DNA from: Octopus vulgaris
Taxonomy: Eukaryota
Length of the DNA stretch: 64,000 nt
Assembly: GCA_951406725.2 (NCBI GenBank)
Contig: OX597829.1
Span: forward strand, 38,440,001 to 38,504,000
Direction: 5' to 3'
In this document: piece by piece, positions 4,310-59,134 of the stretch
Layout of the letters: every line of letters starts with the position of its first letter
Position numbering within the stretch: the first letter of the stretch is position 1
Notes under the pieces: generated by a model
The model's input: the letters and a program-made list of their open reading frames with translations, nothing else
Told to the model about the DNA's origin: nothing
Databases searched by the model: none
Translations under genes and position numbers: made by a program

Positions 4310-4565
4310 ATCACATGACTAACCAAGCTATCAAATGTTGTTACACATCGCTGGTCACGATGCGTTTTTGTATTGTTTTATCATTCAAATGACACCACTC
4401 CATTGGCTAGGCGAGCGGGCTAACATTGTCCCACGATCAACTGGAGCAATGTGAAATGAAGTGTTTTGCTCAAGAACACAATACACCATCCAATCAGGGA
4501 ATCAAACCTACGATCTAGTGATTGTGAGGGAAACAGCCTAACCACTAGGCCACGCACCTTCACAA

Positions 4566-4605
<40 letters not shown>

Positions 4606-5150
4606 GAGGTGCATGGCTTAGTGGTTAGGGTGTCAGCACCATGATTGTAAGATTGTAGTTTCGATTCCTAGACCCGGTGACGCGTTGTGTTCTTGAGCAA
4701 AACACTTCATTTCACATTGCTCCAGTCCGCTCAGCTGGCAAAAATGAGTAACGCTGCGATGGACTGGCGTCCCATCCAGCTGGGGAAAGCATATGCCATT
4801 GAAACCAGGAAACCAGGCCCATGAGCCTGGCTAGGCTTTAAAAGGTGCATTTATTTGTGGAAGCACATGGCCTAGTGGTTAGAGCAGCGGACTCGCTGTC
4901 AAGGGATCGTGGGTTCGAATCTCAGACCGGGCGATATGTGTGTTTATGAGTGAAACACCTAAGCTCCACGCGGCTCCAACAGAATGTAATGGCGAAACTT
5001 CTGCTGACTCTTTCACCACAACTTTCTCTTACTCTTTCCTCCTGCAACTTGCAGCTCACTTACGATGGACCAGCGAGGGGTCCAGGTGGGGAACCTATAT
5101 GCCAAGAAACCGGCCCTTATGAGCCAGGGATGGCTCGAGAAGGAACAACC
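4310..5150. mobile_element. Cluster of three family B-type SINEs (4310-4562 -, 4604-4850 +, 4858-5150 +)
   Basis: Repeated tRNA-like heads tggc.tagtggttag and shared ttgtgttcttgagcaaaacac body. Confidence 0.8.
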
Positions 5151-5390
5151 TAAAAAGAAATATATATATATATATATATATACATACATGCATATGTATA
5201 TTGTTTACATTATATTTTACCATGCAGTTCAGGAGTAGAATTAATATGGCAGTCTATAAATAAGACTAAAGCTGTCGCTGATTAGCTCCAAGAGGCCATC
5301 GCCTCTAGCTAGCTATTAGACACACGTACCTGCGTCCATTACAACCTTCAAACAGGGGAGGTCAGCCACTTCACCTTGCTAGTCAGACAT

Positions 5391-5431
5391 CTGCAGACAT
5401 GTTTCAGGGTTGTTGCCCTTTATCAATGCAG
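5391..5431 (-). ncRNA. Minimal type I hammerhead ribozyme motif (U3:A8 core variant), inverted copy
   Basis: Exact reverse complement of 5814-5854. Confidence 0.75.
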
Positions 5432-5813
5432 CGTAGTCAGAACCAGCAGGTGTCGCTACTGACTGTCTGTTTGAAGATTTTATTTACCTAGTTACAGTGG
5501 AATACATCCACTTGTTTTCAATAATAAAAATATTAAAATTACTAAGTCTCTCTAAAGGAGATCACGGCAGCGTTACTGGATATTAATAGTTATCGCCATA
5601 CTAATATGGCAGTCTTTAGTCTTATTTATAGACTGCCATATTAGTATGGCGATAACTATTAATATCCAGTAACTCTGCCGTAATCTCCTTTAGAGAGACT
5701 TAGTAATTTTAATATTTCTATTATTGAAAACAAGTGGATGTATTCCACTGTAACTAGGTAAATAAAATCTTCAAACAGACGGTCAGTAGCGACACCTGCT
5801 GGTTCTGACTATG

Positions 5814-5854
5814 CTGCATTGATAAAGGGCAACAACCCTGAAACATGTCTGCAG
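5814..5854 (+). ncRNA. Minimal type I hammerhead ribozyme motif (U3:A8 core variant)
   Basis: CTGCA (stem I) - TTGATAA (core) - AGGG caacaa CCCT (stem II) - GAA - ACATGT (palindromic stem III) - C (GUC site, 5849) - TGCAG (stem I). Confidence 0.75.
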
Positions 5855-6659
5855 ATGTCTGACTAGCAAGGTGAAGTGGCTGACCTCCCCTGTTTGAAGG
5901 TTGTAATGGACGCAGGTTCATGTGTCAAATAGCTAGAGGCGATGGCCTCTTGGAGCTAATCAGCGACAGCTTTAGTCTTATTTATAGACTGCCATATTAG
6001 TATGGCGATAACTATTAATATATATCTATATATATATATATAATATGTGTGTGTGTGTGTGTGAAGGCTGATGGCTCAGTGGTTAAGGTGTCGAGCTTAC
6101 GGTCGTGAGGTTGTGAGTTTGATTCCCAGACCGGGCTGCATGTTGTGTTCTTGAGCAAGAGACTTTATTTCACATTGCTTCTAGTTCACTCATCTGTAGA
6201 AATGAGTTGCGACATCATAACATAAAATATATGAAGCCTAGTATTCCCTGATAAGGGTACACCGTGCACATGCATCACAACCATATGTGCATGGCATGCT
6301 GATCTGATATCAAGATTAACTGCGCATGACCTTGCAGGTGGAGCCCAGTTAGAATTTTCCTCACGCCAAGTAGCCCATCCCACCTAAAAGGTCCCTGAAT
6401 AAGGGTTGTTTAAGGATGTTGGACAAAATACCCATGTTTCCAAAAGCAAATTATCCAAACCCCTAAGAATCCCTCTCAACACATGGCTATAATGCTCTCT
6501 CACTTCTCCTGCTTATAATCAGAGATGCACATTTCATCAGACACTAAGGGACATGATCAACTGAATAGGGTCAAACAATTGACAAGCAAAATTTGGAACC
6601 ATCATCATCATCATCATCATCATCAACATCATCATCATTATTATTATTATTATTATTAT

Positions 6660-7724
6660 TGAGTGAGCGAGCAGAGCATGCCATCAAAGTGACACTGGGG
6701 TAAAATATACGAAGCCCAGTATACCCATCATGACTACCCGTCTGATAAGGGTACACCAGGCACATGCGTCACAACCATATGTGCGCGACATGGTGATCTC
6801 ATATCAAGATAAACAGCACATGACCTTGCAGGTGGAGCCCAGTTAGAATTTTCTTCAGATCGAGTAACCCATCCCGCTCAAAAGGTCCCTGAATAAGGGT
6901 TGTTTAAGGACGTTGAACGAAACACCCATGTTTCCAGAGGTGAATTATTCAAACCCCAAAGAATCCTTCTCAACACATGGCTATGATGCTCCCCCACTAC
7001 TTCTGCTCGTGATCAGAGATGCACATATCGTCAGCCACTAAGGGACATGCTCAACTGGTTAAGGTCAAACAACTGACAAGCAAATCTGTGGCATTGAGCA
7101 GAATATTTGCTGTAGCCCATCTTTTATACCAAGACAAAACAATGTACATGATAACACTTCCAATCAGTTAAGATCAGAAGCCAGGAGAGCCACTGCCTGG
7201 TACTGCATCAGGGCATAGCAAATCTGTGGTATTGAGCAGAATATTTGCTGTAGCCCATCCTTTATACCAAGACAAAACAATGTACATGATAACACTTCCA
7301 ATCAGTTAAGATCAGAAGCCATGAGAGCCACTGCCTGGTACTGCATCAGGGCATAGCAAATCTGTGGTATTGAGCAGAATATTTGCTGTAGCCCATCCTT
7401 TATAATAAGACAAAACAATGTACATGATAACACTTCCAATCAGTTAAGATCAGAAGCCATGAGAGCCACTGCCTGGTACTGCATCAGGGCATAGCAAATC
7501 TGTGGTGTTGAGCAGAATATTTGCTGTAGCCCATCTTTTATACCAAGACAAAACAATGTACATGATAACACTTCCAATCAGTTAAGATCAGAAGCCATGA
7601 GAGCCACTGCCTGGTACTGCATCAGGGCATAGCAAATCTGTGGTATTGAGCAGAATATTTGCTGTAGCCCATCTTTTATACCAAGGCAATTTGCTGTAGC
7701 CCATCTTATTTGCTGTAGCCCATC

Positions 7725-26330: not shown

Positions 26331-26800
26331 TACCTCTAGCTTACCTCACTGGCATTTATGTAGAGACATTAGTTTCTCATCTGATTTAGGATAGGCCTTA
26401 TAAGAGTATGAGTTTAAATCTTGGGAAACATCTAAAAAATCACCTTGAGACAGACAAGTGATTACAATAATTTTGAGACCTAATTGACTAAAGCTGTATA
26501 TGCGATTTTTCCTAAATTTATTTGAGTGTATATCCAAGTGTATATCACAGCCATGAGATATGTCTATAGCATTGTCATGGTATACACCAATATCATGAAA
26601 TGGGAAGTTGGATCTCAATGTATCTAATATGTAGAAACCTACAACTCTTGGTTTTCTTTCTTTTTCTGTTTTTATTTACCCCACATTTTCTCAAACAGCT
26701 TTTTCTCATTCCACTTTTTACATTCACTTTCCTCTCACTTCTTCTCATGTCTACTCTTACACTGGTGTCCTTTTCCAGAGTTTTTCAAATAAGACTGACC

Positions 26801-28787: not shown

Positions 28788-29329
28788 TGTATATATATGT
28801 GTATATATATATACATATATATATACATATATATATATATACATATATACATACATATATACATAAATATATATATATACATATATACATATATATATAT
28901 ATACATATGTATATACATATATGAATATTGATATATATGTACTTATGTATATACATACACACACACAAACATGTAAGCAACATGCAATATGTTTGTCCAT
29001 ATACTTGTGCATGTGATTGTGTATATTTATTTTCAAAATATGTTTTGCATTCACATTTTGCATTTATAATATACTGAATTTTCGTTTTTTTTTTTTTTTC
29101 TTTTTCATTTTTAAGAATTTACAGTCTCATTGATTTGTTTTGTAGCATATGTTTATTAAATTGTATACAATTTTAAAAGAAACGTAGAACGAAAACAACA
29201 GATTTTGAAATATACAGATGTTTTCCTAAATCAATATCTTCTGAAGTTGAAAAGCCTGAATGTATTATTACACACACACACACACACACACACTCATCTT
29301 TTACTTGTCTCAGTCATTTGACTGTGGCC

Positions 29330-29741
29330 ATTCTGTTGACCGTTTTCTTTGACAACAAGGGGATTGTTCATCATGAGTATGCTCCACCAGGTCAGACAGT
29401 AAACAAGGAGTACTACCGTGACGTTTTGCGGCGTTTGCGGGATGCTATTCGTGGGAAAATGCCACAATTGCATGCATCCAGTGAGTGGCAATTGCACCAT
29501 GACGATGCACTTACCCATTCAGTGCAGCTTCTGCAGCGGATTTTGGCAAGGCACAGCATTCCCCAGGTCCGACAGCCGCCGTATTCCTCAGATCTCACCC
29601 CTTGCGACTTTTTCCTCTTTCCAAAAATCAAATCTCGCTTGAAAAGAAAATTTCAGGACATTAAGGAAATCAAAGTGAATGCAACGAGGGAGCCGCTGAT
29701 TATCCCAGAAAATGAGTTCCAGGAATGCTTCCATCAATGGA
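29330..29741 (+). mobile_element. Mariner (DD34D) transposase catalytic fragment
   Basis: LTVFFDNKGIVHHEYAPPGQTVNKEYY..WQLHHDDALTH..PPYSSDLTPCDFFLFPKIK. Confidence 0.9.
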
Positions 29742-29771
29742 AACATCATCATCATCATCATCATCATTTAA

Positions 29772-29993
29772 CCCTTTTGGTACCATATTTATTTTGAGAT
29801 GCTCTGTGTATCTTTTAATTAATTTTAAATATAACAAAGAATTTAATAAAATAACATAGTTACCATTAAGCTAGTGTTAGGAACATAAACTGTGACTAAG
29901 GTTTGGCAGAAGATTTTAATGCAGAAGTTTTGAAAATAAGACATTTGTACTACAGAGCCAGAGGCGGTTTCAGGCAGGTTGGTATCAAAAGGG
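29772..29993. mobile_element. piggyBac-type MITE (222 bp) with TTAA target duplication
   Basis: TTAA at 29768-29771 and 29994-29997; TIR CCCTTTTGGTACCA / TGGTATCAAAAGGG; inserted in the TTAA of a family C SINE tail. Confidence 0.8.
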
Positions 29994-32535: not shown

Positions 32536-32567
32536 GATATGTATATACATACGTATATGTATATAAG

Positions 32568-33491
<924 letters not shown>

Positions 33492-38854: not shown

Positions 38855-39325
38855 TCCCTGACAGACCAAATGTGCAATGTCAATAGATGTCCATTTACAT
38901 GAATTACCGAATGGATGCCTCTGTACAAAGCAGTTATCCAGCCACGGAAGACAGGACCGAAACCAGCCACTATGAGGACAGCCTCCAAGTATCAATGGTC
39001 TACTGTATCGAAAGCTTTGGATTGATCCAAATTGATTAGGGCCCCACCCATGCCAGGTTCCGTAACTACCCTGTGTATGATGTAGCGCATCAGATGGAGG
39101 TTGTCATGGATGCTCCGCCCCGGCACAGTACATGTTTGTGCCTTATCGAGTAGTTTCTCGATGACAAGTGCCAACCCCTTGGTTAACGCCTTGAACAAAA
39201 TTTTCAAGTCTGCATTGAGCAGAGTGATGGGCCTAAAGTTATCTATTGCGTTCTCCTTGTTTGGATCTTTCTTCAGCAGCATTATTGCTCCTTGGCTCAC
39301 AAAACTGGCGATGCTCCTGTTTTTC
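38855..39325 (-). mobile_element. L1/Tx1-clade reverse transcriptase fragment
   Basis: NFRPITLLNADLKIL..AQTCTVPGRSIHDNLHLMR..LINLDQSKAFDTVDH*YLEAVL..GFG. Confidence 0.9.
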
Positions 39326-39399
39326 AAGTAATCTTGTGGAACTCATAAAAATAGATCTTTAATGTATCATTCTACAAAACATATAGAATAGATATCTTT

Positions 39400-41577: not shown

Positions 41578-41929
41578 CTGTTACATTTCTCCGTTTTTTC
41601 CGTCCTTGTTTTCATATACATTCACTGCTTTCTTCCAAGGAATCTAATGCTCTTAGCTTAGTTTTTCCTTGGAGCTGACCAGATTGGAGCAATCTCGAGT
41701 ATAACCAGCTGAAATTGCAAAGATAATCAGGAACTCGACTGAGGAAAGAAAAATCTGAATGACCCGTCCTTGTTTCCTTTGTATCATCTATCTGGATGTT
41801 TTGCATTCTTGTCCCATTTTGTATTTTATATATATATATAGCAGCATATGTACACTTTGGTCTCTTATATATATATAAATATATTCTTTTATTAGAAATA
41901 TTAATATTTCTAAAACTCTCTAAAGGAGA

Positions 41930-48480: not shown

Positions 48481-48563
<83 letters not shown>

Positions 48564-48564
48564 T

Positions 48565-48740
48565 AGTTATCGCCATACTAATATGGCATTCTTATAAAAA
48601 TAAGAATAAAGCTGTCCGCTTATTAGCTCCATGAGGCCATCGCCTTAAGTTAGCTATTAGTATGGCGATAACTATTATTTTCCGGGAACGCTGCCGTTGT
48701 TCTCTTTTAGAGAGACTTAGTAATTTTAATATTTCTATTA
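48565..48740. mobile_element. Truncated, diverged relative of the 5242-6021 element with internal inversion
   Basis: Shares tagttatcgccatactaatatggc..ttagctcca.gaggccatcgcc, then inverted attagtatggcgataacta...tagagagacttagtaattttaatatttctattat; between (TA)n tracts. Confidence 0.7.
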
Positions 48741-48758
48741 TATATATGTATATATACA

Positions 48759-48922
48759 TATAAGAGGGATGAATTCTAAGTGGACATCCATTATGATAGA
48801 GGTAGACCCCATATGGTCTGACCACTAAGAAAAGATCGGTATATATCTTTTCTTAGTGGTCAGATCATATGGGGTCTACCTCTAGCATAATGGGTGTCCA
48901 TTTAGTGGTCATCCCTCTTATA
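48759..48922. repeat. ~165-bp near-perfect palindrome (MITE-like hairpin)
   Basis: Arms of about 78 bp (tataagagggatga...ctaagaaaagat / atcttttcttag...tcatccctcttata) with a short loop; TA-rich flanks. Confidence 0.8.
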
Positions 48923-49119
48923 CGTATGTAATATAATTTTTCTGAAACTTCAGATTTTTCGATATGCTAGACCACTGATTTTAAATTGATATTAATCAAA
49001 TTAATATTCATTTTTTCACCCTTATTATTTAAATTTTATATATATATATATATATCCCTTGATCCCTATATAATCGATACCAACATAATAGATGGACATT
49101 AAATTATTATATATCAAGC

Positions 49120-55726: not shown

Positions 55727-56172
55727 ACACTCTTCTACTTTAGTTATTACTTTTCAAACCGAAACCGGTGATCGAAGAATAATCCTTCCCCCGCCGCCAC
55801 CCCCAGACTCAATATTACGTCTTTGTATACAAGTTAAACCGTGCTAATTCACTTTTGGCAACTTGTATTCATTTGTAATTGCAATTGTCACAGAACTGTC
55901 ACGCACTTCTTGCAAACAAAAAAAAAAACAACAAAAAACAACATTCTACGGAAGGAAAAAAAAAAACTAAACAAAACAAACGGAAACCAATACGATAGCA
56001 CTCAACATTTATATCTACTTAACTAGTTCCACTGTTATAGTTTAATTCTACTACTAGTGGGTAGAGTTTCCAGTGTTGTTGTTGTTCTGTGCACGCATGT
56101 GTGCATATATGTATGTCTGTGCGTGTACCAGCAGCGCGTGTTCCCTCTATATGTATGTAGCTTAATTTCAAA

Positions 56173-57679
56173 ATGGCGAACTGTGAAGATAACAGTGGCA
56201 GTGGTGGTGCAGCTGATGATAGTACCATTGTTAATGATAGCCAAAATTTGAGCATTGTCCCTGCTAACGATGGTATTAACTCTGCTAAGGACACTCAATC
56301 GGGTTCAGTCGATGCCCATTATGATGCAAGCAACGCACCTGATTCTGTTGACGTTGAAATTAGTTCTCCAGCCAAAAACCGCTACAAGAAAAAGGTGACT
56401 GGGAGGTTAACGGCTCTTAAAAACTATAAGGAAATCTGGTTTGACCCTCCCAAAAACCAATCGCAGTTTTTGCACGAGAAATGCCTTGACAGCTATTTCC
56501 CTTTGTTGACTAGAAGATTCCGATGCGCTATCGGTTTTATTATTCTTGGTACAATACTATGGAGTATTTACTGTGGTGTTAGCATTGAAAAGTTAGAATG
56601 GTATTTTTCATTCGTTGTGGTCCTTTTGTTTTTCATCGAACTTGCTTGTCTAGGATTCACTTTTACTTTGTTTTATCGGAAGTTCCATATTATTCCATCC
56701 CTGATCATGGGTCCTGGAACATGCATTGTTATTTTGGTTGTCTACGCCTGCCTTCACGATCCAAACTACGAAGTGTCAGCATTTGCCACTTCAGTGACCA
56801 TCATAATTTTAATGTACACCACACTACCCCTGCCTCTAACGTTGGTATTTATTGTGGGACTTATTCAGTCGATTGCTTTGGAAATCTTAAATGTTTTTGT
56901 GTCCCCGGCCTCAGCTATTGATAACGTAATAGTTGGCAGGATCATGTTGCATATATGTCTACATTCACTCGGTGTTTACCTATTCATTATTTTGCAAGTT
57001 AGACGATACAGTCTTTTCCAAAAAATGCAACAATCTACCCGAAACAAACGTATCCAAGAAGAAGACAAAAAAATCATAGAACGTATGCTGCATTCACTCA
57101 TGCCACCGGCTGTCGCGAAAAATGTAATTGACAAGCAAGCTCCTTCTGCGCAAGGAGTTATAACTTTCCGACCCTTTCAGATAGACAAAATAGACCATGT
57201 TAGTATCCTGTTCGCTGATATTGTCGGTTTTACTAAGATGAGTTCCAACAAAACCGCCAAACACTTAGTGGATCTGTTGAGTGATTTATTCGGTCGGTTT
57301 GACAAACTTTGTGAAGCTTTAGGATGTGAAAAGATAAGTACGTTAGGCGACTGTTATTATTGTGTATCTGGATGCCCTGAAGCTAACAAAGATCATGCCA
57401 AGTGCTGTGTGGAAATGGGTCTACGTATGATTGAAGCAATACAAGAATTCGACAAAGAAAACAACGAACAAGTTAATATGAGGGTCGGTGTCCACACTGG
57501 GACAGTACTTTGCGGAATTGTAGGATCAAAACAATTTAAATTCGATGTATGGTCAAATGATGTGACACTGGCAAATATCATGGAGGCAACCGGAAAGCCT
57601 GGACGTGTTCATATTTCTAAAACCTCTTATGAGTACCTTGAAGATGAGTATGAAGTTGAAGAAGGGGAAGATTGTGAAG
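56173..57679 (+). CDS. ADCY9: Adenylate cyclase type 9-like, first coding exon (N-terminus, M1 six-TM cluster, C1a catalytic domain); gene continues beyond the window
   Basis: 515-aa ORF with strong start context (tcaaaATGG), about six hydrophobic segments, and class III cyclase motifs VSILFADIVGFTKMSS, CEKISTLGDCYYCVSGCP, VNMRVGVHTGTVLCG and FKFDVWSNDVTLANIME..GRVHIS. WFDP..YFP..RRFR and FRPF match recalled AC9-subtype sequence. Splice donor GAAG|GTAAGA at 57679/57680 (phase 1). Confidence 0.93.
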
Positions 57680-59134
57680 GTAAGATTTCAAATATTAATA
57701 TTTTCTACATGTGTGTTTAAAACCATTTTCCTCTCCTATTTTTTTTTTTTTATTGTTATTCTGGTGCGTATCCAGATGTTTTACATTTTCATTATATTTT
57801 CGATGGATTGTTTTTCTACAACTGGTCACAAAACCTCACAGAACTAATTATTTAAATGTGCATTATGAACGAAATCTGTTTTATTAGAAAGATACAGAGA
57901 ATGACAAATAGCATACCCAGCAACACAATCAATGGATAAAGAAACAGTAGGAGATATAGTAAAGTTTGAACTTATTACAAGATTTGTAGTTTAGAACATT
58001 GGTTTTGATTCCAATATGACTACCTTGGTGTATTTTCGTGGGCATGCTTGTGTGAGTGCACGAGTAATATAATTTTAGATATGGGGAAGCCCTATTGAAA
58101 GCTCTTTTTCATAGGCTCAGATGATATGGATGAGCTCTCTGTAGGGCCTCTCACTGTCAAAATGAATGATACATGCTACATAAGTATACTGAGTCTCCAT
58201 TGAAACTGTGGTGTTTCCAGATTTACACTGGGTGTTATTACACATGCACACACACGTGTGTAACAAAGTGCCTGCTTAGGTCAAACCTGACCATTGGTTT
58301 CTGTACCTCAAAAATTCCTTTCCAAGATTCCTGCCAGGTCGAGGTTTTTGTGGAGACGAGGACTCTGCCTACCAAGGCAAAGATAAAGGTTGACAAAACT
58401 TGGAAGCACTGTCGTTGCAGGTGTTATCAGAACGCAAAATTTTGGAACAGATAAAGCAAGGCACCTCATCCAATTCACTATCAATTTAGCAAATCTACTT
58501 CTCTAGATTTGACACTTGTTTTATCAAGAATGAGGGACAAAGTTTTGCCTTGGAGTAATTTGAACACGGTGTAGAGAATTAGAAATAATTATACCATCAA
58601 GCAGTTTATTCTTGCTCTAGCAAATTTGCCAATTTGTTGCCTTAGATACACGCAAGTTTGCATCTGTTGTATTTATTGTACAATACATATCACTAAAGTT
58701 TCTGTTATTCAAGGCCAACCCTGCATCTTTGAGCAAGAATTTTTTTCAAGAAACACTGGCTGCTACTCATGTTTGAATGCCTCTCTCTCCAGCACATAAC
58801 TGATGCATTATGCAAGGGAGGGGCTGTTGACTTGGACCAGTACATATCGATGCCTGTGTCATCACAGGTGTCGATTTCAGAGAACAAGCAGCTGCAACTG
58901 AACTGTGAGGTGTCTTACCTGATCCTCTAACAGATCCAATATTCCAACATTTGGATTGGTTTAGAAGTATAAATTCCGAAAGGATAAAAAATGAAATGAG
59001 TTTCAGAAATATTTCAGCTCAGTGTGCAGAAATTTCACTTAAATACATATAAAAATGTGTAAATATGCACACACACACACACACATACACATTCTGTGTG
59101 CATATTTGTATGTATATATACACAAATGTGTATG

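Follow-up and report, generated by a model that had tools for sequence, protein, structure and literature searches.

A head-to-head palindrome of a hammerhead-bearing repeat in Octopus vulgaris and its probable kinship with Penelope-like elements

The 64-kb window of Octopus vulgaris DNA analyzed here (the window being the whole stretch of 64,000 nucleotides, in which all positions are given) contains a 758-bp palindrome at 5242-5999, continued by a 22-nt one-sided extension to 6021. What kind of element is this, and how did two copies of it come to lie head to head? The reading that we prefer, at a probability of roughly 0.52, is that the palindrome arose as a single head-to-head insertion of an ORF-less ~360-nt repeat that is present in high copy number and bears a minimal hammerhead, and that the repeat was likely mobilized from an RNA slightly longer than one unit by an autonomous Penelope-like element (PLE). 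The broader proposition that the family is a non-autonomous, retrozyme-like derivative of PLEs is very probably right. The parts of the element are as follows, with unit numbering starting at 5614 (unit position 1):

5242 to 5615, minus strand: left arm, inverted, with one unit of 360 nt and 14 nt more, ending 22 nt before the main 3' end
5614 to 6021, plus strand: right arm, one unit of 356 nt followed by an exact repeat of 52 nt (partial tandem), its 3' end (site A) running into (TA)n
5616 to 5629, no strand: central loop of 14 nt, overlapping a short native hairpin of the unit (5619-5634), with a 2-nt microhomology at 5614-5615
5970 to 6021, plus strand: terminal repeat of 52 nt, identical to 5614-5665, a redundancy like that of a pLTR or tail
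6016 to 6042, no strand: (TA)-rich target tract, adjoining the right end of the element
5814 to 5854, plus strand: minimal type I hammerhead, predicted to cleave at 5849/5850
5391 to 5431, minus strand: second hammerhead copy, predicted to cleave after 5396, its core free of variants among the family variants listed

Alignment of 5242-5615 with the reverse complement of 5630-5999 gave 362 identities over 370 aligned positions, with 8 mismatches and one 4-nt gap, which bears out an earlier sequence-only reading of the locus as two near-identical inverted arms around a 14-nt loop. Repeat comparison likewise confirmed its periods of 360 nt (left arm) and 356 nt (right arm). It had also reported terminal direct repeats of 14 and 50 nt; the first stands (14 nt exact, 17 nt at 94%) and the second is in fact the exact 52-nt repeat listed above. 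The left arm covers only part of the right arm (it duplicates 5630-5999), and its redundancy therefore lends no separate support to permutation. The placement of the element between (TA)n tracts holds at the right end only, since the pure tract on the left (5160-5182) ends ~60 bp short of the arm. No target-site duplication was found between the two flanks of the palindrome. As had been claimed, the element has no protein ORF: none of its six frames is open from stop to stop for at least 100 aa, and the ORF with reverse transcriptase and GIY-YIG endonuclease that defines an autonomous PLE is absent from it. At 5350, 5368 and 5472 the two arms agree with each other but differ from 95-100% of family depth, and these common rare letters indicate that the two arms come from one template lineage. 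An origin as a DNA transposon (MITE) was considered and rejected, since it is the whole unit that is inverted here and the joints vary, in contrast to terminal inverted repeats of fixed extent with a duplication.

The predicted hammerhead fold has a helix I of 5 bp, a U3-A8 core and a helix II of 4 bp closed by an A-U pair; its helix III segment of 6 nt (5843-5848) is self-complementary and would pair between two copies. Self-cleavage is a prediction from this sequence and fold. A motif scan of the window found exactly two hammerheads, one per arm as previously noted, on opposite strands and 453 bp apart, and none of 100 shuffled windows gave a match. An Rfam scan of 4500-7000 returned no hammerhead at E up to 1, and over the window nothing reached the gathering score (the sub-threshold miRNA matches reflect hairpins); this is thus a conserved hammerhead family that the Rfam models miss. 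Minimal hammerheads with a U3-A8 core and a palindromic helix III are described as a PLE feature, occurring in pairs on opposite strands 100-700 bp apart, with low activity and a dimer required for cleavage (PMC4209133). The palindrome shares with PLE derivatives the minimal type I form, the palindromic helix III and one of the two cores that they carry (C3-G8 or U3-A8), and with retrozymes a noncoding unit of ~170-400 nt bearing a type I hammerhead.

Is this a single oddity or a family? Part of the unit is present in 20 of the 24 public sequencing runs listed (4 organism labels, 9 studies). Contigs from four runs, three DNA-like and one (X11) only guessed to be RNA, were aligned to 5203-5650 at 85% likeness. 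The DNA-like runs yielded 3896, 2998 and 3169 family contigs and X11 yielded 249, which carry no strand or end information. Summed depth is not equated with copy number here, and we infer that the family numbers thousands of copies or more. The head-to-tail joint (5614-5616 to 5260) occurs in all four runs, and no attached ORF was seen on family contigs in any of them. The closed unit and the Penelope-type architecture uphold the proposal of a noncoding, hammerhead-bearing, multi-copy retroelement family. A second subfamily, with a diverged unit junction (5260-5279, 5614), is common in all three DNA-like runs, and many family copies have a longer, more perfect hairpin at the unit junction. The left flank (5203-5232) has no cover in any of the four runs and the central junction is spanned by none of the listed pieces, so that the reads do not directly confirm the palindrome locus itself.

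The window holds further copies:

48556 to 48741, no strand: second copy, head to head, without hammerhead, both outer ends in TA-rich DNA
48645 to 48556, minus strand: sense piece of the second copy, unit 324-408, 88%
48655 to 48741, plus strand: inverted piece of the second copy, unit 26-111, 90%
41890 to 41929, minus strand: third piece (unit 71-110 at 87.5%, E 4e-8), which ends close to site B (see below) in A/TA-rich DNA

Neither arm of the second copy is contained in the other, the inverted arm extending beyond the end of the sense arm. Adjoining it is a near-perfect hairpin (48751-48905) with arms of ~73 bp and an 8-nt loop, which is single in the window and could be a MITE or another fold-back insertion; the fold of 48770-48930 is at -107.6 kcal/mol.

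Where do family copies end? TA-rich loose ends pile up at 5580, which is unit 52 (site A; 25 in X2 and 30 in X4), and at 5521, which is unit 111 (site B; 30 in X2), among the 24 rows listed of 588, the remaining listed rows being unit variants as judged by eye. The two sites, 59 nt apart, are used by window copies and run contigs alike. The idea that the copies are permuted is therefore not supported, because their 3' ends fall at two fixed sites in window and runs. Fixed 3' ends with an optional tail in AT/(TA)n targets are a feature of PLE derivatives, the 59-nt spacing being greater than the 30-40 bp described. So is a partial tandem (a pLTR-like direct repeat) with an adjacent head-to-head inverted copy. 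Among the 15 joints listed of 35, six change strand, and in four of these six one side falls at 5598-5614, a place where an arm begins at both window loci too; the limit of the aligned stretch may account for part of this clustering of 5' ends near 5614. The features of a PLE derivative that we examined are thus present, the partner excepted, and the element works like a retrozyme or mini-PLE.

PLE insertions are known to show partial tandems, adjacent inverted copies, a one-sided tail of 30-40 bp and a bias to (TA)n, and to include non-autonomous elements with pLTRs (PMC8557442). In a described inverted pLTR the overlap is 15 bp and the inverted copy 37 bp shorter, and palindromes occur at pLTR 5' ends (PMC3846280). 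One PLE, PAc (Poseidon, Anolis carolinensis), has been reconstituted in vitro; its protein nicks and extends both strands, starting at two internal sites of an uncut RNA template and favoring AT-rich DNA (PMC11167929).

The mechanism that we propose, all enzyme steps of which we infer, is as follows. A PLE reverse transcriptase-endonuclease would nick AT/(TA)n DNA and start cDNA at a fixed internal site, unit 52 or 111. The template would be an uncut linear transcript of ~1.15 units that starts near the hairpin (unit 1-30), traverses the unit and continues into a second copy of its beginning. Either of two routes could yield the inverted arm: the 3' end of the cDNA would fold back at the unit hairpin, or a second nick would prime a second cDNA and microhomology would join the two. 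The first route, a fold-back template switch as the sequence-only reading had it, fits the palindrome, where the left arm corresponds to only part of the right one and begins at the native hairpin with two shared letters. It cannot alone build 48556-48741, where neither arm is a subset of the other and two primings are needed. Cleavage by the hammerhead would require a dimer or the help of a protein. Taken as a whole (fixed-site PLE priming, an over-length linear template, and an inverted arm made by fold-back or second priming), this mechanism stands at about even odds.

Is the template linear or circular? Because the right arm runs across the unit junction as well as the cleavage site, it was copied either from a ligated circle or from an RNA that exceeded one unit and had not been cut. 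Circles have already been proposed as templates of more-than-unit PLE copies (PMC4209133). An uncut linear RNA of ~1.15 units would yield the same DNA as a circle and accounts for it equally well. We lean slightly toward the linear RNA because arms repeatedly begin near unit 1-30, minimal hammerheads on their own cleave poorly, and PAc uses uncut RNA in vitro. That said, the conserved hammerhead and the strong fold suggest that cleavage matters at some step, which favors a circle.

The alternative with most in its favor, though we hold it at well under even odds, is that the family is a true non-LTR retrozyme: tandem master loci would be transcribed, dimeric hammerheads would free monomers, ligation would give ~360-nt circles, and a PLE enzyme would copy round the circle from the fixed sites. 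Retrozymes are defined as tandem repeats expressed as circles (PMC7229834), and the octopus unit lies within the 170-400 nt of retrozyme circles, those of mussels being 350-390 nt in the same account. A cleaved linear monomer could not have served as template for the right arm, which spans the cleavage site and the junction. Folded as a circle, the unit reaches -119.3 kcal/mol against -82.9 +/- 5.8 kcal/mol for 60 dinucleotide shuffles (z -6.3), a high degree of self-pairing such as retrozyme monomers show, and the hammerhead strand folds ~20 kcal/mol lower than its antisense. Only 3 of the 40 variants listed (of 44) fall in the 41-nt hammerhead motif (two in loop II and one A-U to G-U change that keeps helix II), none is in the core, and two flanking ones would extend helix I. 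A double change at 5350/5472 also preserves a long-range pair. The whole-fold pair test on variants was, however, only marginal. In the left arm 17 of 40 variants kept or extended pairing (P 0.03) and 12 broke it (P 0.07); in the right arm, where 7 rows equal to that arm or within the gap are omitted, the figures were 13 of 33 (P 0.10) and 10 (P 0.11), with one compensated pair (P 0.35). Covariation is therefore not established. Further points against a true retrozyme are that no locus with two same-sense hammerheads was seen (the palindrome has one per strand, and run contigs are too short to show such a locus elsewhere) and that head-to-head joints often lie near the unit start on one side, which a circle does not predict. 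The palindrome also lacks the two consecutive hammerhead units required in the preprint of Li, Clavereau and Pollet 2026 (10.64898/2026.07.22.740005), which treats retrozymes as non-autonomous PLE derivatives. Finally, published retrozymes carry canonical hammerheads as described in PMC7229834, and minimal ones cut poorly (PMC4209133).

If the family were of this kind, it would be the first cephalopod family of retrozyme-type circular RNAs, present in thousands of copies or more, with a PLE-type minimal U3-A8 hammerhead in place of a canonical one, and spreading as dispersed 1.15-mers and inverted pairs. We consider this full statement doubtful. Were it true, a cephalopod circRNA family would bridge PLE terminal repeats and retrozymes, and its copies would amount to natural evidence that two primings at fixed internal sites give rise to PLE inverted structures.

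An improbable alternative is that the unit is the terminal repeat and tail of an autonomous PLE, the copies being 5'-truncated stumps of an element of a few kb. Most PLE hammerheads occur in truncated copies (PMC4209133). There is a dip in family depth at 5428-5470, and none of the 32 listed pieces bridges 5480-5509 or the wrap region (31-letter rule), so a longer parent element is possible at 5480-5509. A 30-aa frame at 48662, whose ATG lies 22 nt before site A, recalls the ORF starts inside pLTRs (PMC3846280), and the loose ends seen are 24 listed of 588. Against this, the right arm contains the entire unit closed on itself, and other copies, even among only 32 listed pieces, bridge 265 of the 356 unit places, one of them crossing the dip at a depth of 816. 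The share of contigs continuing into unlike sequence is 0, 0, 0 and 0.02 across the four runs. The 30-aa frame had no match among 1.84 billion proteins, which for so short a query is weak evidence. An assembly or library fold-back artefact is very improbable even though inverted PLE structures are difficult to assemble (PMC8557442), since the mismatches are private to one arm or the other relative to the family (5 left and 3 right, besides the 4-nt gap), which fits independent decay after insertion and not a copying artefact, and since head-to-head arrangements recur in the second window copy and in the strand-changing joints of the runs.

The preferred reading, mobilization by an autonomous PLE, calls for a partner. 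None was found: exact unit patterns gave 0 matches each in metagenome, viral and prokaryote collections. Two 10-letter unit motifs gave 0 exact matches in the supplement of PMC8557442, which includes two octopus Naiads and in which line breaks could hide matches. Penelope repeats are reported to be abundant in cephalopods (PMC8967140), and 235 Rfam hammerheads were counted, without context, in the giant squid genome (PMC6962438). The main text of PMC7229834 mentions octopus or cephalopods 0 times, and searches of the literature on octopus or cephalopod Penelope elements, hammerheads, retrotransposition and circular ribozyme RNA listed nothing on this family, which may be catalogued in Repbase or Dfam.

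Several other features of the window may be recorded. On the minus strand at 26346-26675 is a decayed 109-aa frame with no Pfam or PDB match and no DNA link to the unit, which from its motifs we take to be a PLE-type reverse transcriptase. Pfam matches identify a Mariner-type transposase fragment (29177-29797) and a reverse transcriptase fragment (38992-39342); the frame at 32567-33265, without Pfam match, is presumably the restriction-like endonuclease of a non-LTR element. Two repeat copies lie head to head around (TA)n at 4440-4726, 77% complementary over 124 nt, with related copies at 4857 and 6061; we assume a resemblance to a tRNA-derived SINE. Another repeat has direct copies at 6223-6547 and 6701-7041, 86% alike over 300 nt and 494 bp apart. 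A long exon at 56161-57720 (plus strand) is adenylate cyclase type 9-like, its best relative being from Argonauta (85% identical) and the next at most 49%, which points to an octopod as host.

Both the element class and the architecture are published, so the family will not surprise a specialist. Its value lies in what it offers for studying how PLE tandem and inverted structures form, the unit being short, very abundant and probably PLE-dependent, its start sites fixed at two places and its inverted joints numerous and independent; the questions that it addresses are fold-back versus two primings and linear versus circular template.

How does the octopus family compare with known systems? Like PLE insertions (PMC4209133, PMC3846280, PMC8557442), it has a minimal type I U3-A8 hammerhead with a palindromic helix III, in an opposite-strand pair, and a partial tandem with an inverted copy overlapping by ~15 bp, a one-sided extension and AT/(TA)n targets. 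Unlike them, the unit of the palindrome lacks an ORF and carries its hammerhead in the unique body, outside the 52-nt repeat; helix II is short, with A-U in place of the usual G10.1-C11.1 as its closing pair, and the 3' sites are 59 nt apart. With metazoan non-LTR retrozymes (PMC7229834; 10.64898/2026.07.22.740005) it shares a unit of ~360 nt that is noncoding, strongly self-paired, low in GC and furnished with a type I hammerhead; the units of both close head to tail, number in the thousands and are proposed to depend on PLEs. It differs from them in being seen as dispersed 1.15-mers, stumps and inverted pairs rather than two-hammerhead arrays, in having the PLE-type minimal hammerhead, and in that its circle is hypothetical.

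The non-autonomous PLEs of Chlamys, such as MRC1 (PMC8557442), are likewise short derivatives that form pLTRs and head-to-tail copies; unlike the octopus unit they are green algal and mostly without hammerheads. PAc (PMC11167929) resembles the octopus family in its fixed internal starts downstream of the hammerhead and its AT-rich targets, and its extension of both strands offers a model for inverted pairs. PAc is, however, autonomous, and it starts ~85-90 nt past the cut, whereas the octopus sites lie 172 and 231 nt past it.
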